64,000 bases of DNA from Bigelowiella natans CCMP2755 (taxonomy: Eukaryota; Protista; Cercozoa), in assembly GCA_000320545.1 (NCBI GenBank), contig ADNK01001791.1, positions 1 to 64,000 on the forward strand, written 5' to 3'. Made by a program: the position numbers and the translations under genes. The notes under the pieces were generated by a model. The model saw only the letters and a program-made list of their open reading frames with translations, was not told the DNA's origin and searched no databases. This document shows positions 6,514 to 63,624 of this stretch, piece after piece (position 1 is the stretch's first letter; every line of letters starts with the position of its first letter).

Positions 6514-7008
6514 CCCTAATCCCCCTTTGGTCGAGAAGATCACTGCGGCCTCTGATAGGCCTTCGTAGTTCAACGTTGGAAGCTTACGCTCTATAGAACA
6601 TGTAAGAACACATTGTTCAGCAAAGAAATAAATGTATGGCCACAGGCGTGCCGGCATAGCTCCTTAAGTAAGTTTATTCGCTGTGTCGCATCGACGACCC
6701 AGCGAGGAGAATATTTCAATTTTACATCATCAGCAACTTCAAATGTCAAGTCGCAGCAGCCCCTGCATTAAGAACATCTTGTTACTTTGTAAGTCGTGCA
6801 TGCACGCGACCAACCAACATCTGCGGCTGCATTGCTGCCACGCCTGCGTCGAGCCCACAAACACTGTGATCTAATCTGCTTGTGTGTTAGAAACAGCCTA
6901 ACAACAGCGAAACATCTGGTGGTGCCAGGCTCACACATGTACAGCGATTGATAGCAAGACTACAAGACTACTAGCTCTCATGCACATGAACCAACAACTC
7001 GCTGTGCT

Positions 7009-8052
7009 GTGTGCATGGAGTCGCGCGCGCTTTGTTGCATCGCACGTGTGCCGCCGTTAACGACATGTATGCACGTAGATGCAAGTAAAATAATTGTCTC
7101 CGCCCCAATACATGTTTTGAACGTACGCGTTGCAATGGGCAACGAGACACACAATGGACTGTGCAATGCAACATGCACTGCATGCACACACGTCCCCCAC
7201 GTCCTCACTGGCACTTTGCCACCCCGATGTCAAACCAAAGTGCAGTGTGCTAAATCATGGTTACGCACTAATGCATGGATCGACACAGGCAGCGGTCCTC
7301 AAATCCATGAGGGAACAAATGATTGGAGCAGTTGTGGCTTCATCATTGAAAATCGAAAAGTGCCAGATGGCACATCGTGGATTGATGTGTCCACAAATAC
7401 GTGGAACAAAGTGTCCTTGTTTCGTCGGCTCAAATCGATCACTGACGATTTGTTAGATGACGAATTGCCCACCGTTTTGGCGACAACAGAGGCGCTGAAA
7501 AAAGAACTAAAAAAACATCACAAGGTGATGAAATCCTGTGCTTTCAACGAATTCGAAGAGGAATGGTCCAATGATTCATTGCGAGCTGTGCATCTCAAGA
7601 ATCTTGGACACCTTCCGTCATCTTCGATCACCGGCATCAAACTAAAACTTCCAAGTGTTGCTACATCATGGATGCGCGCCATCTGTGGTGTCGGCAATCT
7701 TGGAAAATTCATGTTCTCACGTGGACAATGCACAGAGAAAGATGCCACGTGCGATGCATGTGGCATCCTGAAGGACATGGATCATCTCCTGCAATGTCCA
7801 ACACACAGTCGAGAACAAATCAGATTGCGCAATCAAATGAGCGCGATCATGAATCGCAACGACGACACGAACCGGCTGACAAAGGCTGAAAAGGACTCCA
7901 GAACTGCTGCGCGCAGTGCGCGGCAACATCGGTCGCATGAGGACGCTTTCAAATGCATGAAGCACGTGGTGGCAGAAACCAACAGATGCAACATTGGCGC
8001 TGTAGCCGCTGCATTGCACAGCTACATCAGGATGACCCTTGAAAAAATTTAA
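7009..8052 (+). mobile_element. 3' fragment of a non-LTR retrotransposon (LINE ORF2 C-terminus), hypermutated
   Basis: Intronless 347-aa ORF containing CDACGILKDMDHLLQCPTH, a CCHC knuckle typical of LINE ORF2 C-termini. No RT motifs are present. It is followed by a duplicated 3' segment and a decayed (TA)n tail. Confidence 0.65.
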
Positions 8053-8071
8053 TTCTTCATTACATCCGTCT

Positions 8072-8121
8072 CATGTGTGCACACATGTGTACATGTGTGC
8101 ATGTACACACACATGTGTATG
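8072..8121. repeat. Decayed (TA)n microsatellite
   Basis: 25 in-phase dinucleotides: 12 TG, 10 CA, 3 TA, 0 CG. Confidence 0.75.
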
Positions 8122-8405
8122 TCACATTGTAGCGCTGTAGCCGCTGCATTGCACAGCTACATTTAAGGATGACTATTGAGCAAATTTTATTGATTAATTG
8201 CATCCATCTTACACATTTCATACTAATGTGTCTACAATCGTTTGTTTCAGAAACGACTTGCTAACCTTTTCCATGCTCTATCTGAGAATGTAACATACTG
8301 CTACACAGACGCGTTTGCATACACGCATCTAGATATTGTATCACCGCTTATTGTCGTACACGAGCGCTTAGCCGGTCAAGAATCTGTGCAAAACGTAGAC
8401 TTAAT

Positions 8406-12991: not shown

Positions 12992-13076
12992 GATCTCCAT
13001 TCGGTAAATGGGCCTGGTTCAATAGTAGTAAGAGCTTCTGAAACCAGGCTGTGAGGTTCGACTCCTCACGGGATCA
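12992..13076 (+). ncRNA. tRNA-like cloverleaf (not a canonical tRNA)
   Basis: Acceptor-like GATCTC/GGGATC plus A. D-like hairpin CCATT-CGGTA-AATGG. Stem GCCTGGTT/AACCAGGC with a long loop. T arm GTGAGG-TTCGACT-CCTCAC containing a B-box (GGTTCGACTCC). Confidence 0.55.
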
Positions 13077-14740: not shown

Positions 14741-14943
14741 TGTGGTACAAGAATCCAAGGAAAAAAATGAGAAGAAATTAGAGTGAAGGCTTATGCATAG
14801 GAGCAGATGTTTGCAGATTCACTCCATGAAGTCACTGACCTCGGAATGCACATGTTTAGGAAAACAATAGACCTAATCTATGCACAATTTAAATTATCAG
14901 CATCGTTTTTACTAGATTCTTTTGATTACGGGCTACAATTTTC

Positions 14944-15000
14944 ATGAGGAAACATCGGCGTAACCCTAAAATTACCGTCTGGAACGGTGCGTCTATTTTA
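14944..15000 (+). pseudogene. Possible truncated start of LINE ORF2 (APE endonuclease first strand)
   Basis: MRKHRRNPKITVWNGASIL resembles the (L/I)xxxTWNxxSL start of APE domains. The frame then degrades into TpA-depleted sequence. Short match only. Confidence 0.3.
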
Positions 15001-16228
15001 GAATTTTCCTTCAAGAGCGCCCCGCCCCTATCTCAGCGAACATGTTGATGCATGTGCAAACATTTTTGTAAATGTAGAACTTTACTACGGCATCAACACT
15101 GTGCATGTGCATGTGTGTGCACATCTAGACATGTGTGTGCAAATCCATGTGTTTGTGCGCTTTATAGCTTGGTGACAACATGCATGTATGTCATTGCCAT
15201 CACGCTTGCTGCCTACGCCATTTGCAGGAGCTCCTAAATGCCATGGAAATGAGAGAATAGAAAAATCCACAAAAGTGTGTTGCACCAGACACAAATCATG
15301 CAATGCATGTCAGTACAGCTTTGTGGTCAGATTCCATGTGAGACGCAGCTAGGCAGGCTAGAAGGCCTCGCTAAATATGGTCATGCCTGAGATGCCATAG
15401 TAGTTTATCGTCGAATCAAAACGACGTACCTCACGTGAAAGCAAGTCTGGTGCTATGTACGTCATGTTGCACAGTCAGCGCGAGGTTTGACTACAAGCAT
15501 GCACAACATGCATGCTAGCATGATGCAATGAGCAGCACTAGAGCATTCACCACAACGTTTTGATGGTCTCCAAGCAGTGGCAATTTCTGTACGCATGGCA
15601 TCTATGTGATGCCACAGGCGGAGCCACACAAAGCATGATTTATGTCACGTACATAATGCGCATCCGCCACGCCGAGCATTGCACATGTCGAACGCAATGC
15701 TAAAGCACAAACTCACAACGTCTACTCAGAGCATACGACTGCAGGCAATTCCCTAGCCTGAAAAGGACATAGACACAAAGCCCAGCCCACGCCTTGTATG
15801 CATCGAGCTCTCTGAATGCCTGAGCAAGCACTGTACTCACCAGCGCATTCCCAACGCTGCCTTCTTCCCATAATAAAATGCTGGAGCAGGTGGACAAGGC
15901 CGATCGGGCGCAGAGAAATCTCAACGCAAATTCAGGAGCAGAGCCAAAATCGTCCACTAACCGCGCGATGTTTTCATCGAAGGTTTTTGCATCGTAATAA
16001 TTTCGGGTCGAACAAATGCTTTCGCCAGTCTTCTTATCCGCACCTTACCGATTATTATGCATCAGTAGTGTATTCTCCTTATGTTTGCCTCAGAATGTGG
16101 GTCCGGTTGATTTATAGTAAACCATAATATTATATATATTTATATATATTTATTTATTTATATGTATTTATATTTTATATGAATATCTTTCGCACGGGTT
16201 GTAGAAAATTCAAAAACCACATGAGAGT

Positions 16229-19711: not shown

Positions 19712-19746
19712 GTGTGTGTTAGCTATACGGCGAATTTGAACGGTAC

Positions 19747-19764
19747 ATGTTCGGGATGAAAAAG

Positions 19765-19804
<40 letters not shown>

Positions 19805-22476
19805 TAGGGAAAAGGAGAACAGGCCATGGCGACGACAACAGCAGCAACGACGCGGGAAGAGGGGGAACTCAAGCAGGGGCCGTTTGCGCCATTTGCCGAA
19901 GGCCGACAACTTCACGATGCAGCAGGTGTTGCTCTGTATATTACTGCTCCCCAGAGCACCAGAGGAGTCATTGGCCCCTCCACCGCATTGAGTGTGCATA
20001 CTTTGCAAACCGCAATGCACACCGAAAGAAGGAGAGAGAGCGGTTGGAGCGTCGTGTCAGTGAGGTCTTGCTAGACGACAATGCCGTAGATCAGGGAGAA
20101 GGAAGGGGGGGGCAGGTTCTGACCTCTGACAGTGGGATGGTGGAAGATATTTATGACGGCAAAGGCGAGAGAGATGGTAGCAACAGCACCAACGGAAACA
20201 AATCAGTAGATAAGTACAACAGCACGGAGAATCGTGAATGGAGTGCCTCGTACAATCGGTGGCTGGACACGACACAAGCAATTATCGACGATTTCAAGCG
20301 CAACCGCTCACTCTCCTCCTCCTCCTCCTCTTCCCACCTACGCCGACATGTCCATTCGCATCATCATCGAGTAGCCAAGAAACCCCCTCAAACACCACCC
20401 CCTCAGAAGCAAACTCAGCAGCTGCCGGCGAAAGCAGTTTCATTCGATTTCACCGCCCCTCCCTGTGCCTCTCGTGAAGCCTTCTCAGCTAAGGTTGATC
20501 AAGACAGTCGTGTCCTTCATGACACGGCGCCTTCGTCGTCGCTGGTGACTGCCGCGAGCAACAACAACGGAGGAGAGCAGCACTCGGGGCAGAGGCCAGG
20601 AGAAAACGAAAACCTCCTAACCTCCCCCCCCGCCCTTACGTCAGTGCTGCCAGCCCCACCGGATACATACGAGACGTTCAATCAGCTCAAAGTTGCAGTT
20701 GACTACGTTCAGGCGCACTCGCCCCCTCCCGGGCAGACTCTGCTGGTTTTCGCCCATGAGCTGGCACTAGGGGGGAAGCGAAAGTTCATCGTCGCTACCC
20801 CCAAGCGGTTCTTTGAGAAGTACATGAAGGTGGAGGCCGACTCGCGCTGTTTCCACGAGGTGATTCTGGACGGGGCGCCGTGCCACCTCTACCTCGACGT
20901 CGAGTACTACAAGCAGCACAACCCCACGCTTGATGGAAACCATCTCGTGGACACGTTGCTGCGGCACATCGATCAAGGCGTGCGGCAGCTTGTCATGAAG
21001 ACGGAGGGGGTAGGAAATGGGACAGCGGCGGCGGCGACGGCGCTGAAGCGGGAGGCGATCCTGGAACTTGACTCCAGCAACGACGAGAAGTTCTCTCGAC
21101 ACATCATCATCCAGCTGCCGGGCTATGCATTCCAAGACAGCATGCACGTCCGAGAGTTCATTCACAGCTTGTACGCGCCGCCGCCCAACGGCCTCGGGCT
21201 GCAGCCTGTCCTCGTCAGAACGGACAAGGGCTCGCAAACGTCCTTCATCGACTTGGCTGTGTACAATCGAAACCATTGCTTTCGCCTCTACCTGGCCACG
21301 AAGTTCGGTAAAGGGCGCTTCCTGCTCCCCACCAGGCGGTACAACGCTGATAATATGCAGCACGGATACAGCGCTTGGGACTTGTTCAGAAAGTCGCTCA
21401 TTACCAACATCCAGCGACCGCGGGGGAGAGGGGCGCCGCGGCCGCTGGAGGAGGAAGGGGGGGGGCGGGGGGGGATGAGTAATTTGGCACATTCTACCAC
21501 CTCTGCTACTCCTTCTCGTCCTCTTGCTGCCGCTGCTGCTGCCAATGGCCCTTTTAAGAATGGAAACAGCGTTTTGAAGGATAGCGATGATCCGACTACC
21601 ACTACTACTACTACGATGATTAGTATATGCTGCCCAGAGATTCCGTTGTCACTTTATCCTTCCTCGCTCAATCACTCACGCTACTTATCCGCGTATTCGC
21701 AGTATCAGCGCCGCCATCATCCTACATCGGCACAGCTGTCATCGGCATATGGTGCTGCGCAGAACAGCCAGGCCGCATTCTCAGGAGCGCGCAAAACTGC
21801 GATGTATGGCCCCTCCCCCCACCCCGAGCTCGACAGGTTCGTCGTCGAGGTGGCGTCCCGGAGGGGGCCGACGGCGGGGATTCGGTCTTGGATCGAGATG
21901 GAGACCGGGGTGTTTCTGTTCAACATCAAGGACAATCGCTACTGCGGAAACATCGGGCGCGTGCACAAAAGCAACGGCGTCTTCTACATCGTGGACCTCG
22001 TCCAGAGCTCCGCAGCGGCGCAGATGTGCTACGACCCAGACTGCAAGCACTACCGGTCCCCCCCCGTGCCGCTCCCCCCACAGCTGCAGCACCTTCGCGA
22101 GGAATATGGCGATCTTCGATTTCAGCAACGGCGGGAGCAAGAGCAGATGCAACAGCTGATGACACTCGAGGAGGAGGAGGAGGAAGGGGGGAGGGGAGGG
22201 AAAGCACACGCCGACATTAACAGCTCCGTAAGAAGATATACGTCTCAATACGGGATGGTGAAAGCGGAGTTAAGGTCCCTCCTGCAGACAGTGGATGAGT
22301 TCATCGTGCGCCGGCCGATGGCTCGCTATCAGCAGCTCACCGCTCATCTCGAGCAGTTTTTCCCGCCGCCGTTCGTTCGAAACGCAATGAGAAATGCAAA
22401 CGTCACGAAAAAGATTAAGACGGTCATGGAGAACCGAGGAGTCTTTGGCATAATTGATGCAGCCAAGAGCGCCTGA
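19747..22476 (+). CDS. PRIMPOL: DNA primase-polymerase PrimPol (AEP domain + UL52-type Zn finger) with N-terminal MYND zinc finger
   Basis: AEP motif I LYLDVEY, motif II SRH, motif III FIDLAVYNRNHCFRL. Zn finger RYCGNIGRVHKSN...CYDPDC. MYND CAICRRPTTSRCSRCCSVYYCSPEHQRSHWPLHRIEC. Confidence 0.92.
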
Positions 22477-23024
22477 AGTATAGCTTGTAGCTAGCTCCTA
22501 GCATTGGTCGCTACGCATAGTAGCGTTGACAACTGATTAATTAGCAGCAGCAGCAGCTATGGTACTATGGCACTGCACTAATGGAATGAACCACTATCAA
22601 AATGACGAAGCAAACATGAATGCATGGATGATATGGATTATTACTTATTACTGTTGTCTGCGCTGTGCTGTTATGAGACAGATGTAATGAAGTGATTAAA
22701 TCATCTCAATAGTCATCCTAGTGTAGCTATGCAAAGCGCGCTAAGCGCGGCGGCTACAGCGCCTATATGTTGTGTCTATTATGAGGCCGTGGTTTAGTCA
22801 TCAGCTAGAGCAAATCTGTTTACTTTTGATTGACCTTACAGCAATAAATTTGAGTAAGAGGCACTATAACACTTTTAAATGATGTGTGCTTCTGCTTAGA
22901 GGTAATGGTGACATCCAAAACGACGCACTTGGTCCCCTTTCAACTAGTTTCACATGCACGCCTGCACGCGCATTAATTACATAGCATTGAGATGTGAAAG
23001 CATGATCAGCTCGACAAACACGTG

Positions 23025-23067
<43 letters not shown>

Positions 23068-23317
23068 TGGGCACGCAATGATGCGATGTTGCGCAACGCA
23101 AATCGCACGTTCGAGCGGACTGGGCATCACCTCAGTTCTGGTCTGCAGGAGGTAGGACGCATGCTACAGCGAATGGCTGCACAATCTAGACAATCGACAT
23201 CTACCCAAATACTAGATCCTGCACTAGCACGTACTCTCATTGCATAGAATGATCAGAGAATCTCAAATCCGCTTTTAAGATGGCAAATTCGTATGTTTTG
23301 TCATCTCTGTGGGCGTG

Positions 23318-35934: not shown

Positions 35935-36177
35935 ATCTGAATTCACGTATGTATAGGTGCCTACGACCCACAAGGAGATGCTTTGTGCGTTCGTATTGAC
36001 TTTGCTGTTTCGGGGGTGCCCGTCGAGCCAGAGGGGGGAGAGGAGAGCGACGAAAAGGAGGGAACAGGTAGTAAGCAGCAGGTAGAAGATGATGAAGGGC
36101 GGATAGACGATGAAGAGGCTGGAAGTAATACTAAGATAGGCACGTGTAACGATCTTGACGGTGATAAGAAGTCATGA
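31317..36177 (+). CDS. MATH/TRAF-domain protein with coiled coil and N-terminal PUB-like region(s), multi-exon; start uncertain
   Basis: MATH-like exons FRIQWTVPNW, DSQGRRW, GIFLEC, RIFTSEDSKWGFPK, AYDPQGDALCVRIDF. PUB-like INCCPGALLVLRSCGFIF (~32830). Confidence 0.65.
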
Positions 36178-36920
36178 GCTTGCTTAGTGCTCTTCATGTA
36201 ATACATCTGATACGATTGCTGCTGCTGAATTCACAAAGCTCCCTTGAATCATGTGCATGCTAGCATGCAGCAACATCATCAATTTCATTGTGTGCTTTAG
36301 CTGGTTATTAGATCAACATTTTCGCTAAACGTCCTGAGTGCTGAGCGGCCACGTACATGTGCTGCGAGCGCTTTGGCATGCTAGCTAGCATGTGAGTCAG
36401 CAGGGCGCAGCCGGTATTACATCTCACATCGACCACTAATACGTATGCAGGCCAGCTAGCCAGCAGGTTGCATACACAGCTAAAAAATGTAATTATCCGT
36501 TACATACATCCGATCCGTTCATTCATTCACACCTGGACATCGCCGTAGACCACCAGCCCTACCTAGCTAGCTAGCTACCACACAAAGATCTGAGTTCCCA
36601 TGTGCATGTACGCGTGTATCCACTACTAGACTAGTCCAGCAGATGTACATTCTAACATGCTGTGTTGCGCATCAGACTTCCTTGCTGCACTTACTCTGAT
36701 GCTAATTACCTGGCCAGCTGTACTAATAATATGGTACCAACAAAGCAGCACCAACATGCTGCTCTGTGTCTGGCGAAACGTCATGCACGGCAGAACCGCC
36801 CCCCTCTAGACATACGCATGCGAACGATCACATTTACTTTCCAGTAGCTCTGGAGTGATAACGGGTGGAACATAGCACAGAGCTTGCATAGTGGATTACA
36901 TGAAAATTGATGGAGCAGAC

Positions 36921-49767: not shown

Positions 49768-50211
49768 CACTGCATCGTCGTAGAATTACAAAAAACGCAT
49801 GCGCCACAGCCGTGCATGCAACGTTGAAGCTATGCATACTTATTACTGTATACTAAATGGTCAAACATTTTCATGTTTATGTAGAATTTTCGATCAGTTA
49901 CGCGGGTACGATAGTATCATGCTCAGTTGTATGTGCCACCCGTTATGATATGAGGACAACTTGCATTGCGCACATGTACTCGCACAAAAATAAAGAGGAT
50001 GCTCCTTTTCAGCATGCTACACGCCCGGGATGGCAAGCTTACAGTAATAACCATTGCATGTGCGTGGGGCTAGCATGGCATAAGCGAATGCATTCTGATG
50101 CCATGCGTTCTTTGAACACTAGAGGATTGCTGCTTTTTGCGTCTATGTCACTCATGTAATGATTCAACTCCGGCTTTTATTTGCAAGCTCTTTGGGATTT
50201 ATCCATGGATG

Positions 50212-50252
<41 letters not shown>

Positions 50253-50362
50253 CGTGTATTAAAAGAACGCTGGAACCAATAGCACAAGGCTATACAGTCT
50301 AGATAGTTCGTTAGAACATCAGAGCCCAGCTATGCTGCACTAGCCGCTTGCTTTCACAGGCT

Positions 50363-50635
50363 TTATACTGCTATGAATCTGTGGGTACTCGCTCGTGTGA
50401 GTTGGAGGAGTGGGTTTGCTCCCTCCTGCATGCCGACAAGAAGCTCGATGAACTCCCATCCGGCGTTGGAGTCGGCGCCGAATATCTCGCAAAGCTGATG
50501 GTAGTTATGACGAGCAGGCATTTATGCGTATATTTCGCGTTTATTGCGTGATTATGTGGAAAAGCAACAGAGCTCGATGAGCTTCAGCTAGGGTATACCT
50601 ATGGTTCTCTTACAGTGTATATGTGACTGTGTGTT

Positions 50636-56261: not shown

Positions 56262-56511
56262 CGTAGGGAGGTGTAAAATGCAAATTGTGGATCGAGCAGC
56301 CAGAAAATATACCAACAGGTTGGTCATACTACTGTCGTCTCTATCTTCGTGAAAAAATAGTGAGGTGTTGGCTTTGCTATCGCATCTTCTTTTAGCACGC
56401 TCGGTTGCCACTGAAACTTTGATTTCCTATGATGTAGCTCTAGCAACTTTCCCAAGGCCTCGTAGCGAGATAAAGCCATTTACAAAAGGTCTACAATTGT
56501 TTAAAGATTAG
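55332..56511 (+). CDS. PTRHD1: Peptidyl-tRNA hydrolase PTRHD1 (PTH2 family) with bipartite presequence
   Basis: VQYVVVRRDL..W|GPLIAQACHASTAA, MHKVIL, KLWIEQPENIPT|ALATFP...GLQLFKD*. The N-terminus has a hydrophobic signal and an Arg/Ser-rich LKLRGG segment. Confidence 0.85.
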
Positions 56512-57441
56512 CTAGATTAGGATAACAGCAGCCACTTTCTAGGTTTGAGTATGGATCTTCTCCTGTAAATTCTCATTTCTAGATTATGGTGACGGCACAT
56601 AGTCTAGATAGCTAGATAGTCTAGAGTGTGCTAAAAATTCACAAGCAACGTTTCATTCAACTAGTCAAGCTAGCAAGGCTACAAGGTAGCATGTTGATCC
56701 CATTCATGACATCTCTCATGTAGCGTTACATGAAATGAGTCTAGAAATACACTAGCACACGCCGCAGCTTGCTAGCTAGCTAGCTAGCTGGCATCGATCA
56801 TTTGCATGTCTAGCAGTGGGCATGTCAAACATTCTGTCATTACTAGATTGCAACATCGCTAGATCGCTAGCTAACTAGCGGTACATTTGTCAATGACAAT
56901 TGTCAGCACATGCAGCACACTCCATTTCTAGCATTTGCAAGAAAACTGCATACTAGCATAGCTACACAGCATGCGATCACATGTCTAGATGTGTGTGATT
57001 AGCTCGAGAGCTGCAAGTGCAAGTTCAATTAGCGCTAGAGCGTTCGACATGCACGACAGGGACGAGACGCAGCTTCCGCAAGAGGAAAACTTTGAAACTG
57101 GACTTTTGAAGTTCTAGTTCCAAACAAAGATGGAGTACCACGTTCTAGCGCCATAGCGTTCTAGCTAGCATACGATGATCTAGATGATCTAGTGATGGAG
57201 GCTAGGAGGGTGAGTCAACTCCATCTAGCTATGCTGGCATGCGAAGACACCAATACCATCTAGCTATGCTGGCATGCGAAGATACCTACGCGCTGTGACA
57301 CCGTTCAAGAAAAGAATTGAAATACATCTAAACATCTCAACACGATCTAGATTTGTAAACTCTCTCTTCCATTCTAGTCAAAATCACTGCATTTTTGGAT
57401 CAGTTCAAATCGAATGATACATCTAGACATCTAGATAGCTA
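56510..57441. other. CTAG-saturated intergenic tract
   Basis: About 36 CTAG in ~930 bp by hand count, against about 4 expected at uniform composition. Confidence 0.85.
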
Positions 57442-57583
57442 AAATTGGTGTACTATTGTTGAGGATTTAACATGCTAATGTAGCCTTCGAACGCACGAAC
57501 ACGCACTGCTCCCAAACGAGCAGCGCTCATTACGTAGTAGCTTTAATCTGACGTATATGAGTGCTATAGCTCTGTCTATTTTA

Positions 57584-59416
<1,833 letters not shown>

Positions 59417-59861: not shown

Positions 59862-60747
59862 AAAACGACTTGGATGCTGCTCCTGCGACAAGGTGTCCAG
59901 TGTCCAATTCATTGCAATGAACAAAACTCAACTTGGTGCATCTTGAGCTCAAGTGCCAAACGATTTCAATTTCACAGATCGCTTCATCAATTGTGCATCT
60001 CTGGACCTGTTCGGTGCGACATCTGTCGAAATGAACATGAGAACATTGTCACTTTGGGAGCCTTTGCTGCCATGTCTTCAAAGGAAAAGCTGTGCCTTGC
60101 TCTGGGGGCACGATTTGGTGCACCTTCGACAGGCAAAGAAATCGACAGGGCTCCGCCGAATCGATGTCCAGCTCAATGATTTTGCTGCTGTGCGCCAATT
60201 TGGTGATTTTGTCCTTCGTCTCTGTGCTCCTAGTTTCTGTCACATGCAAACCCGATCGAGATGACTGATTTCAGCTTGAACTTGGACACACTCCACCTAC
60301 TAGCCTGTTCCTCTCTAGCTCCCTGGCTCTCTAGCTCTGATCAACAGATCAACAGGCAGTTCACCTGGCCCCAACTCATTGTCCTTGGCTTCCTCAGTCA
60401 CAGGACACTGTGTTAGTTTTGTTGCTCAACACCAACAGGGTGCTGACAAGTCCTCGCAATGATTTTTGTTGAGGCGCTGCTGCACGCATGTCCAGCTAGC
60501 TAGATGTGCACGTCCCATCTGCATGGCCATGTGGTTCTTGCTCACGTGGTTTTTGCATCACTGGGTCAATGCTTCGTTCATTGTTCATTGTTCAACATGA
60601 ATCAACCAATTCGTTGACCAATCGCTTTTGTCCGGTCATCATTTCAAGCAAAAAGTGACACCATTCTTGCAAGTCTGGAAGTGGTGATGAAAGTGCCAGC
60701 TCCAGAGATCTAGAGATGCCTGCCTGTGTGACTGCATCAAGTCCATT
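59862..60747. mobile_element. TpA-depleted degenerate repeat/TE remnant
   Basis: 9 TpA in ~885 bp (7 CTAG, 1 CTAC, 1 TTAG). Tyr-free pseudo-ORFs rich in Cys/His. TE family not identifiable. Confidence 0.45.
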
Positions 60748-61078
60748 TATGTTTTAAGTTGCACTTTGTGTGTGCGCCCAGCCCAGGCCGGAGGACTGTG
60801 AGCATGTGTGCGTATCGTTGTCTAGTTCTAGAGTTATGCATCATTCGACAGGCCGTGTCGGCGCCAGAACCATCAGTTGTGCACATGCTCGATGACAAGT
60901 GTTTATGCACGATGCTGCTGTGTACGCCACATTTAGACAAGTATGCGTTTAAAAAAAGTGCATGCAGATAATTAGATAATTCAGGTTTGTTTGCAGACAC
61001 AGCGAAATAAATTTGATCATCGATAATTTGCCGCTCTATTGGCTAAGTTTTGTGCATGTACATATATTATGTATATAA

Positions 61079-61243: not shown

Positions 61244-62587
61244 TTATATTTCCGGCAACCACCTACCCGTCTTCGTAAATTTAATAGTGACTCGTCTCCT
61301 TTTCTCAAACTGAGCCTGAGCGAATGCCTTGTTCAACTTATTTACTTTCACGTCCCTAGAATCCGCAAGAGAGTAATGGCGTTTGGCTCGCCGAGCTACA
61401 TGGTTCGAATCTTTACTTTTCGTGTCCCCTTCTTCACCTTCAGCACTGCTTCTAATCTGTGCCGTTGTCGACATCATCATCACCATGCTCTTGCCAGCAC
61501 CTTCTCCATCTAATTTGCTATCCTTAGCCTTTAAGTCCTGCGTCGATGTTTCCGCCCCAGCTGTTCCATATGCTGCATCCTGAGCGACAACACCGTTGGG
61601 CGTTGAGCCGTAGGCTCCTGCTGCTGCTGGGTCATAGTATCCTCCTCCTCCTCCATAAGCAGCAGCAGCCCCATATGGATATGCTGCAGCGGCTGCAGCA
61701 GCATACCAGTACTGCTGATATGCAGCAGCAGCAGCAGCTGCAGCATATCCAGCCCCTGCATTAGCCTGAGGCGAGGCCCATCGTACTCGGAAGCAAGAAT
61801 TACCGATTTGTCGACCGTTGAGGCCCTGGATCGCTCTCTGGGCCATCTCTCTAGTAGCATAAACAACCGTTGCAACCCCCTTTCCAACTGGCATGGCGAG
61901 GCTTGTGATTTCGCCATATTCCTCAAATTCGCTCCGGACTTCAGACTCCGTCAACGTGAGATCGATATTCGTGACCAATAGACCGGAAGTTGATGCTTGT
62001 ACTGCAGGATCACCACTGCCCCCTGTGCCGTTCTTGGCCACAGCTACGGAGACTCTCATGGCGCGATTTGATAGGTAAACGCCGGTCATTTCTTGCACTG
62101 CGCGGTCGCGCTCCATTTGGTCCGTGAATTTAATGAATCCATACCCTTTGGATATGTTGGTCGCTGGATCTATAACTACTCGTGCTCCCGAGACCGTGGT
62201 ATAGCGTTGACGGAAGCACTGCTCTAGCATATAGTCTGTCACATCAGGTGCGAGATCTCCAACGAAAATAGAGAATGAGGGACCCACGCCGCTCCCTCCA
62301 CCCGTCTGAGCCCAGTTCAGCCTATAATATTTGCCAGGATTGCTAGGGACCGGTTTAGAGTTGAGGGTGGTTAGAACTCTTTCGGCTATATCACGGGAGC
62401 AAAACTCCACAAAGCCATAACCAGCGATGTCCCCTGTTTCTTTATTCCGGATCACTTTGACATTCTCGATCACATTCTTGTAGTCCTCGAACATTCGATA
62501 GACGAACGCCTCGTCCATGTGGGCATCAAGGCCTCCAACCCATAGCGTCTTGACATTTGTAGGCCTCGAGTAGTTCGCTGCCGCCAT
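61244..62587 (-). CDS. Triple-RRM RNA-binding protein of the RBP45/RBP47/Nam8/TRNAU1AP family, intronless
   Basis: TLWVGGLDAHMDE...VKVIRNKETG..GYGFVEF, SIFVGDLAPDVTD...SKGYGFIKF, a third RRM and an Ala/Tyr-rich tail. Likely ATG at 62587 (MAAANY). Confidence 0.9.
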   Translation of the reverse strand: MAAANYSRPTNVKTLWVGGLDAHMDEAFVYRMFEDYKNVIENVKVIRNKETGDIAGYGFVEFCSRDIAERVLTTLNSKPVPSNPGKYYRLNWAQTGGGSGVGPSFSIFVGDLAPDVTDYMLEQCFRQRYTTVSGARVVIDPATNISKGYGFIKFTDQMERDRAVQEMTGVYLSNRAMRVSVAVAKNGTGGSGDPAVQASTSGLLVTNIDLTLTESEVRSEFEEYGEITSLAMPVGKGVATVVYATREMAQRAIQGLNGRQIGNSCFRVRWASPQANAGAGYAAAAAAAAYQQYWYAAAAAAAYPYGAAAAYGGGGGYYDPAAAGAYGSTPNGVVAQDAAYGTAGAETSTQDLKAKDSKLDGEGAGKSMVMMMSTTAQIRSSAEGEEGDTKSKDSNHVARRAKRHYSLADSRDVKVNKLNKAFAQAQFEKRRRVTIKFTKTGRWLPEI

Positions 62588-62736
62588 GACCGCGAGGAGG
62601 AAGAAGCTTCGGGTTGTCACAGTACCGAAATAATAACAAGAGAATGAAAAAAAAGAAAACAATAAAGCGGCTATTGTTAATTTGATGCCCCACCAACAAA
62701 TGCTTGTAGATCAAGAAATACACCGAATACTTCGTA

Positions 62737-63514
62737 AAAGGATGCAATGACAAAGAGAAGTCACAGTCCCAAGTTGGCAAGGCACGAAAGAAAATGGAAC
62801 CAGGAATGGAGGATGCACCTGGAAAAAAGCAATTGGAAAAAAGATGGACGAGGATTTCAAATGAGATCTTCAAGCTCCTCGATGGCTGAAATGCCATTCT
62901 TGATTCCTTCTGGTTTCACTAGTTAGACCTCGCTAAAGTTAGTTCGAGGCACTGCGTTTCGCACACTGCAAATGTCTTGCAACGTTTTGGAAGTGCAGTT
63001 TGTCTGTGATCATTGTTTCATTGTTTCATTGTTTCTTTTGGGATCGACTGCATCCAGGCTGGTTCAGCTTGTGCATGCCTTCTCATGGGATGCCACACAC
63101 AAGTGGCACGCATCTGCATCATCACGGAACATGCGCCAGCCCACACATTGAGCTGGATCGACTTGCTAGCTTGTTGTGCGTGTGCAATTGCGCAGTTTTT
63201 GTTCGGAAAGCGAGGCGTCACACGCGTGAACGGAATCACGCGATGTGCGGGCTGCTGTGTGTTCACAGTCCAGGTTGTCAGGCACAATCACAATTGTGAT
63301 TTCGCTGCATGACGAGCACAATTTCAAATGCACGATGCAACTCAAGTGTGACATGATCGAAATGCCATGGAATTTGCATCAGGTTTGACCCGCATGCACA
63401 CATGCGTTTCCATTTTGCATTGTGCAAATGAACCAATGCAATTGACTGCTGAGACGTGGCATGCATGCATGCGCCCTCATTGCAGCGCAGCTCACTAGCT
63501 CAAGCTAGCCAGTC
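62737..63514. mobile_element. TpA-depleted degenerate repeat/TE remnant
   Basis: 62942-63514 (573 bp) has only 3 TpA, all in CTAG. CpG is abundant. Confidence 0.45.
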
Positions 63515-63624
63515 CTATAGTCTAGGGTGCACATGCAAACACATGTGATTGATGACTTTGAAATGTGCATGATACCGTTGTCGTTCGATTCTGTTGTTCA
63601 TGCTGCAGCATGCACCACGACGGG

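Follow-up and report, generated by a model that had tools for sequence, protein, structure and literature searches.

Why is the tetranucleotide CTAG piled up in one short tract of Bigelowiella natans nuclear DNA, and what makes it there? The tract occupies positions 56510-57441 of the 64-kb stretch that was analysed (hereafter the window), between the convergent reading frames of a PTH2-like gene and a kinase gene; the origin of the window is given by an RRM frame (61247-62623), which matches a JGI Bigna1-labelled protein at 100% identity. The initial annotation had reported about 36 CTAG in about 930 bp, an accumulation of about 10-fold, and a (CTAG)4 near 56772, and all three are borne out. 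There are 36 CTAG in 32 runs within 932 bp, out of 160 in the window, and the (CTAG)4 is located at 56772-56787; the observed-to-expected ratio (O/E) relative to base composition is 10.3, and 1000 dinucleotide shuffles of the tract gave 6.3 ± 2.2 CTAG with a maximum of 13. This is the strongest 4-mer pile-up of any 932-bp stretch of the window, at 14.7x the window mean, while the best 4-mer that does not overlap CTAG peaks at 5.6x. The tract had also been described as lacking a long repeating unit, which is true in general except for one 35-bp tandem duplication (57216-57250/57251-57285).

Editing at TpA cannot by itself make CTAG, and simulated TpA editing from which CTAG was exempt reached an equilibrium O/E of only 0.35-0.49, in agreement with the earlier argument that protection alone is insufficient and that CTAG must be created. 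The editing in question, a TpA-to-TpG/CpA hypermutation of viral inserts and TpA-poor mobile DNA in B. natans, is described in the available text of Mettrop et al. (bioRxiv 10.64898/2026.01.13.699255), where A>G or T>C changes at TpA make up all but one of the 231 hotspot mutations.

CTAG between short direct repeats

The CTAG units are flanked by identical direct repeats in the form X-CTAG-X, where X is variable and 4 (sometimes 5) nt long, as in TCAA-CTAG-TCAA, AGCG-CTAG-AGCG and CATTT-CTAG-CATTT. Among the 32 runs of the tract, the 4- or 5-nt flanks repeat exactly in 13 and with one mismatch in 8; the other 11 show neither form. Across the window, with microsatellites masked and independently of hand-drawn compartments, exact 4-nt repeats flank 27 of 144 CTAG runs against 1.09 expected (at most 6 in 3000 permutations), including 17 of the 112 runs outside the tract. 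Repeats of 5 nt are likewise in excess (4/144 vs 0.24 expected), while those of 3 nt (2/144 vs 2.8) and 6 nt (0/144) are at chance level; from the number of 2-nt repeats (20/144 vs 10.7 expected, permutation maximum 24), some footprints may have shorter duplications. Exact repeats flank 31 of 145 CTAG runs (21%) against a median of 1.3% for other 4-mer cores, and the next-ranked cores, GCTA and TAGA, both overlap CTAG. Among constant cores of 1-3 or 5-8 nt, none was prominent beyond simple repeats.

In the 31 exact cases the match extends beyond X by 0-1 nt in 22, by 2 nt in 5 and by 4-5 nt in 4. X is free to vary apart from a weak symmetric preference, M-N-N-K (C/A first, G/T last), of the kind that would be expected for the target of an integrase. 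A mixture fit assigns the X-CTAG-X form to 73% (50-93) of the runs in the tract, to 59% (44-74) in other convergent gaps plus repeat remnants, and to 14% (0-39) elsewhere. Stepwise collapse of the exact cases removed 128 bp in 15 events and revealed nesting, with the stop codon of the + gene duplicated by the first event. At the level of anatomy we are highly confident that each X-CTAG-X site is an insertion of 8-9 bp that duplicated its target, and that these insertions are often nested.

GATC also stands between exact 4-nt repeats in 7 of 202 runs, against a background of about 0.9% (one of the seven is a shifted CTAG case; sites at 13072, 17696, 27947, 34423, 52868 and 60347). This is possibly a second, rarer type of footprint, but not a significant one over 100-plus cores.

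What marks a footprint, a variable direct repeat of fixed length around a constant core of a few bases, is found here, and transposon footprints were one of three routes to CTAG that the initial annotation had put forward. We consider it probable that most CTAG in the tract, about two dozen very small insertions, are excision footprints of a cut-and-paste transposon with predicted ends CTAG or CT..AG. Such an element would insert by a staggered cut of 4 (or 5) nt, by which X is duplicated. Its excision would leave terminal bases on the flanks as 3′ overhangs, and palindromic CTAG overhangs would anneal and be ligated, a cohesive rejoining that gives one uniform core; if two bases were kept per end, CT and AG would yield the identical product. 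Overhang sequence between target duplications after excision, as well as local hopping, is described in the available part of PMC3878927. Local hopping or repeated targeting of a permissive stretch would add 8-9 bp per event, and landing on an old CTAG would produce tandem CTAG. The same stretches would be open to host TpA editing, which removes the other TA steps and in time wears down the footprints as well; the co-location with the editing signature fits element visits that attract host editing. CTAG would thus be prominent because it is continually re-made and not mainly because it is protected, and the observed density would follow from repeated insertion into dead repeats and tolerant 3′ gaps. 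A simulation with insertions attained an O/E of 8.

The features of the tract, its flanks and related sites are as follows (unstranded unless a sign is given).

56437-56511, +: last exon of the PTH2-like gene ('PTRHD1'), stop TAG at 56509-56511
56507-56520: ATTAG-CTAG-ATTAG, exact 5-nt duplication taking in the stop codon of the + gene
56510-57441: CTAG-dense tract, 36 CTAG in 32 runs
56512-56692, +: 3′ untranslated region (UTR) of the + gene; RNA cover stops at about 56690; 8 CTAG
56599-56628: nested cluster of three CTAG; ATAG exact, ATAGT/ATAGC with one mismatch, 3-nt AGT repeat
56657-56677: adjacent exact pair, TCAA-CTAG-TCAA and CAAG-CTAG-CAAG
56768-56791: (CTAG)4 with CTTG on one side and CTGG on the other (one mismatch); no other piece of the tract is as multi-locus
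56855-56882: ATCG-CTAG-ATCG, then CTAG-CTAA-CTAG; nested, partly decayed
56923-57042: four separate exact footprints, CATTT (56923-56936), CATA (56949-56960), ATGT (56981-56992) and AGCG (57031-57042)
57086-57586, −: kinase gene ('STE20'), stop and 3′ UTR; covered by RNA down to 57204 (X17) or 57086 (X15)
57175-57209: three exact footprints in succession, ATGAT, TGAT and GAGG
57216-57285: the 35-bp tandem duplication, CCAT-CTAG-CTAT per copy; target copies differ TA/CA
57419-57438: ACAT-CTAG-ACAT, then another CTAG
15121-15545: other convergent gap with four exact X-CTAG-X (15125, 15349, 15515, 15538)
23181-23194: ACAAT-CTAG-ACAAT in the gap downstream of a PrimPol-like gene
36256-36633: other convergent gap with five exact footprints, including CATG-(CTAG)2-CATG and CTAC-(CTAG)3-CTAC
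59900-60900: TpA-depleted repeat remnant with three exact footprints (60331, 60710, 60828)
62740-63600: TpA-depleted repeat remnant with two footprints that are exact (at 63166 and 63495) and a third, at about 62796-62807, that has decayed

Setting, distribution and decay

The convergent arrangement of the flanking genes is confirmed, with the stop of the + gene at 56509-56511 and that of the − gene at 57584-57586. The earlier placement of the tract between genes stands for the reading frames but not for the transcripts, as raw RNA reads and contigs show that a large share of it is 3′ UTR (the contigs are guessed to be RNA, and one of them has a GT..AG joint). The names PTRHD1 and STE20 are the earlier reader's labels: the + gene has a single exon with a weak PTH2 match (E 0.012) and a GT..AG splice joint at 56316/56436, and Pkinase exons were detected in the − gene. 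CTAG density is flat at 36-44 per kb in both UTRs and the untranscribed middle; on the kinase side there are 13 CTAG within 57086-57441 and none in 57442-57586.

The tract sequence is matched by contigs of four DNA runs and by RNA data with no listed substitution, and an assembly artefact is ruled out for it, with the qualification that the DNA runs may be the source of the window itself. The contigs that span the tract show neither indel nor substitution, and for the same reason this absence of polymorphism says little. The tract has single-copy depth at 80% likeness, and the outside matches listed are all short (≤45 bp). A diverged satellite or miniature inverted-repeat transposable element (MITE) family with CTAG in its consensus, which the initial annotation had named as a way for its own reading to fail, is rejected on these grounds and on the lack of a long tandem unit.

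Nor is the enrichment confined to this gap, the other such way: four of the five other convergent gaps are CTAG-rich, with 6-14 CTAG per kb (the fifth has 1.1, divergent gaps 1.7). Together the five hold 30 CTAG in 4745 bp, compared with 79 in 52886 bp elsewhere, and are thus 4x denser; gene orientation at some gaps is taken from unannotated long frames. Exact footprints number 13.9 per kb in the tract, 0-6.5 in the other convergent gaps and 2.3-3.0 in the remnants, and in the remaining 52.7 kb only 3 of 70 runs are of this kind. That they are almost missing from this intron-rich part of the window suggests that targeting or local hopping is at work and not purifying selection alone. Fifteen of the 18 footprints outside the tract lie in the top quartile of TG+CA enrichment. 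The same form is seen at other loci, once close to the 3′ end of a different RNA contig and once where three DNA contigs give a loose-end consensus (agreement 0.71). The PrimPol-like gene upstream of one of these gaps is a long single frame (19723-22476) that combines a MYND finger at the N terminus with a primase zinc domain of the UL52 type.

The tract bears the signature of TpA editing. Its TA steps that are neither preceded by C nor followed by G have an O/E of 0.34, compared with 0.82 in gene bodies, and TG rho is 1.27 and CATG 3.4; the overall TpA rho of 0.95 is due to CTAG. In the two repeat remnants TpA rho is 0.21, and TG rho is 1.4-1.6 in the five other convergent gaps. Those gaps (6600-8400, 14741-15700, 22477-23230, 36175-36920 and 49770-50365) show gains of TG/CA, CATG and TGCA and a loss of CC, unlike divergent gaps. 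The substitution simulations reproduce the low CC and high CATG/TGCA without further assumptions; a separate CC-to-CT process was rejected, as simulated TpA editing alone yields CC of 0.70-0.76, and so was CHG/Dcm-like deamination (4 CCAG in the tract vs 4.1 in shuffles). The tract is single-copy UTR and intergenic DNA in which no viral or mobile element was recognised, and the signature appears to extend to gene 3′ ends, which is not described in the available text of Mettrop et al.; the words 'CTAG', 'tetranucleotide' and 'context' are absent from the main text of that paper.

The footprints themselves are edited. Several mismatches between target copies are TA/TG or TA/CA, and 6 of the 24 TA sites that lie within target copies have been edited. 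In the gaps, remnants and tract, 13 of 44 CCAG/CTGG cores have a target repeat with at most one mismatch, against 4.3 expected (two of the 13 are one duplicated site). Summed by hand, the six one-mismatch core classes give 40 vs 24 expected, or about 16 decayed per 39 intact, a share near the 22% expected from the 12% divergence of target copies. CTAG in old footprints decays at about the neutral rate, so that neither protection nor selection is needed. A strict exemption of CTAG from editing was dropped on the excess of decayed cores; CTAG is mostly not spared, and partial sparing may occur.

One repeat family offers a view of such decay. Where the window has CCAG, three variants found in 11-13 of 14 RNA reads apiece imply GAAT-CTAG-GAAT, if they are in phase, and the counterpart in metagenome contig L001 reads GAAA-CTAG-GAAT. 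L001 was the one metagenome contig matched by a repeat-based probe, which had no match among viral contigs or prokaryotic genomes; it has 14 CTAG, one with an exact duplication. At L001:61-549 a TnpB/Fanzor-like C-terminal frame (Pfam Cas12f1-like_TNB, E 5.9e-17) adjoins a copy of the window's short repeat, and this protein as a query matched no viral loci. The repeats in question (60346-60594 and 62884-63035) are short, high-copy and transcribed, with summed depths of about 80x and about 250x single copy and several CTAG/CTAA/TTAG/CTGA variant sites; at their ends are (CATTGTT)n-like runs, which may have arisen from (TTA)n tails by editing. A long interspersed nuclear element (LINE) remnant at 6958-8049 is also TpA-depleted and has no CTAG among its 29 TA. 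It has kept a 364-aa open frame; a relative bears RVT_1 and an endonuclease domain, copies have been absorbed into two JGI gene models, and the LINE 3′ end is duplicated locally (7997-8054 and 8132-8191), with an exact 31-bp copy 135 bp downstream.

Weighing the explanations

Several results weigh against excision of a transposon. No CTAG-ended inverted-repeat element with a matching duplication was found in the 64-kb window, nor a clear donor element in L001, and the uniformity and density of the footprints are far beyond those that we know of for any element. No empty-site allele was seen at the tract in the seven runs compared, so the polarity of insertion comes from the anatomy, and the 11 runs noted above have no recognisable 4-5-nt duplication. 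Footprints lie ≤5 nt apart in 7 of 31 cases, only about the 95th percentile of random insertion, which lends weak support to re-targeting, and the compartments used for the density comparisons were hand-drawn, partly after CTAG had been seen. Insertion simulated without sparing failed to fit both the 36 CTAG and the low non-CTAG TA of the tract: when matched to the TA loss (O/E 0.34), 14-23 CTAG remained from 36 events, which implies that editing mostly came first, that there were more events, or that CTAG is partially spared. Sparing is also what is suggested by decayed cores under exact repeats only, which are at background level (1/44); the tract has only 4 CCAG/CTGG; and some sparing is indicated by the TnpB-like frame of L001, where in-frame CTAG without duplication makes up 5 of the 29 TA (p 0.006).

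A captured or templated CTAG unit could instead be joined directly into a filled-in 4-nt staggered break left by topoisomerase II or an integrase-like nuclease, with no transposon involved and possibly as part of a host pathway that edits foreign DNA; we regard this as unlikely but conceivable. Convergent gaps build up supercoiling, the association of footprints outside the tract with TG+CA enrichment (15/18) agrees with it, and it would account for a window without a donor. We know of no source for a constant CTAG unit, however, and duplications of 5 nt exist (4/31). Topoisomerase II makes 4-nt 5′ overhangs whose fill-in gives 4-bp duplications, but those described in the available text of PMC8795545 have no inserted core. 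A version in which a host enzyme system writes the CTAG unit into 4-nt staggered breaks where the TpA deaminase acts, again without a transposon, is quite unlikely. The nucleomorph telomere repeat is of the TCTAGGG type; addition by telomerase was rejected, with CTAGG/CCTAG found twice in the tract and X ending in T (either strand) in 14 of 27, about chance. Palindrome fold-back was rejected as well (inverted flanks in 4 of 144 CTAG runs), as were truncated-retroelement tails, since there are no partial CTAG units among the 5-8-nt cores.

In a substitution sink, as the initial annotation had called the tract, TpA editing would spare CTAG while CTAA, TTAG, CCAG and CTGG are converted into it. 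The two remnants, where 14 of 26 surviving TA lie within CTAG compared with 50 of 2052 in gene bodies, speak for this, as do the single exact duplication among the 14 CTAG of L001 and paralogous copies that differ as CTAG/CTAA/TTAG/CCAG at several sites, although the latter differences cannot be polarised. Yet substitutions cannot produce direct-repeat flanks, twelve simulated models gave an O/E of 0.18-4.65, and the best of them, with conversion or protection added, still falls short of the observed 10. The excess of decayed CCAG/CTGG cores, the LINE remnant with TA but no CTAG, and the published hotspot mutations, 230 of 231 of which are, in the available text, of a type unable to create CTAG, argue in the same direction. 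The sink fails as the main cause and is improbable. Replication slippage, acting on (CTAG)n or on units of 8-9 nt in a genome prone to it, is very improbable: the window is rich in microsatellites, CTAGCTAG is its commonest 4-mer doublet (9/160) and 4 of the 31 exact cases extend to the full 8-9-nt unit, but slippage would copy the entire unit including CTAG, whereas 27 of 31 extend ≤2 nt past X, and X differs at nearly every site. Slippage is largely refuted, but the 35-bp duplication and part of the tandem runs may be due to it. Duplication by 4-nt fill-in at CTAG, another route proposed at the outset, is not supported as the main one, with only 2 of 32 tract runs tandem. A motif under selection as a terminator or boundary of convergent genes would fit the 4x denser CTAG of the five other convergent gaps and a tract that spans both transcript ends. 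It is nonetheless highly improbable: density is as flat over the UTRs as in the middle and drops to zero in the 145 bp beside the kinase stop, repeat remnants bear CTAG too, cores decay about neutrally, and selection would not make target duplications.

Known systems and implications

The proposed excision footprints may be mariner-like in form, yet they fail the target tests of Tc1/mariner, piggyBac and hAT. B. natans carries virophage-like inserts, and integration of this type was also compared. The footprints of Sleeping Beauty and Frog Prince, as described in the available part of PMC3878927, similarly consist of a few terminal bases left between target copies after end-joining, and local hopping would cluster them; here the target is a variable 4-5 nt and not the TA that Tc1/mariner duplicates, the core is a 4-nt palindrome and not a 2-3-nt overhang, and the density of exact footprints reaches 14 per kb. 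For piggyBac (same source), a TTAA target and excision that leaves no footprint differ from the variable target and retained core, and hAT, with an 8-bp duplication and a random footprint, differs from a constant core without 8-nt flank repeats (0/75). Duplications of 2-4 bp by topoisomerase II (ID_TOP2A; PMC8795545, available text) share a 4-bp duplication of a weakly specified target, but they arise with mutant enzymes and insert no constant core, and a pure topoisomerase II duplication was rejected on the CTAG between the copies. Mavirus and EMALE integration, with duplications of 5-6 bp and mostly 3-5 bp, respectively, resembles the tract in its short variable targets; the comparison is one of duplications, and no CTAG footprint is described in the available text of the sources (bioRxiv 10.1101/068312, PMC8547959). 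With the published TpA hypermutation the tract shares the organism, the loss of non-CTAG TA and the gain of TG/CA; the paper, as far as its available text goes, deals with substitutions in viral and mobile DNA, in contrast to insertion in single-copy 3′ gaps, and its TpA cut-off (0.43 or less) would miss a tract with a rho of 0.95. In a literature search of mainly open papers, without Repbase, no account of this footprint came up, nor any methylome of B. natans; no CTAG motif appears in the available text of the ChlorV preprint, and B. natans is unmentioned in PMC12695648.

The X4-CTAG-X4 scar is uniform and machine-searchable and accounts for about a fifth of the CTAG in the window. Were the window typical, its 31 exact cases in 64 kb would extrapolate to about 4 x 10^4 in a genome of about 94 Mb. 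This would point to a very active transposon with an end chemistry unmatched by the families tested, or a new insertional mutator. Were the CTAG units written by the host, they would be the work of an insertional mutator, causing 8-bp frameshifts and stop codons on both strands, that operates beside A-to-G editing to defend the genome; if this window is representative, its marks would number in the tens of thousands across that genome. Each scar is both a clock and a polariser, as it holds two once-identical copies and a known core. Such scars could date TpA editing, measure its context preference and show its reach into single-copy 3′ gene ends, and would thereby turn the questions of what is targeted, and when, into ones testable on existing genome data.
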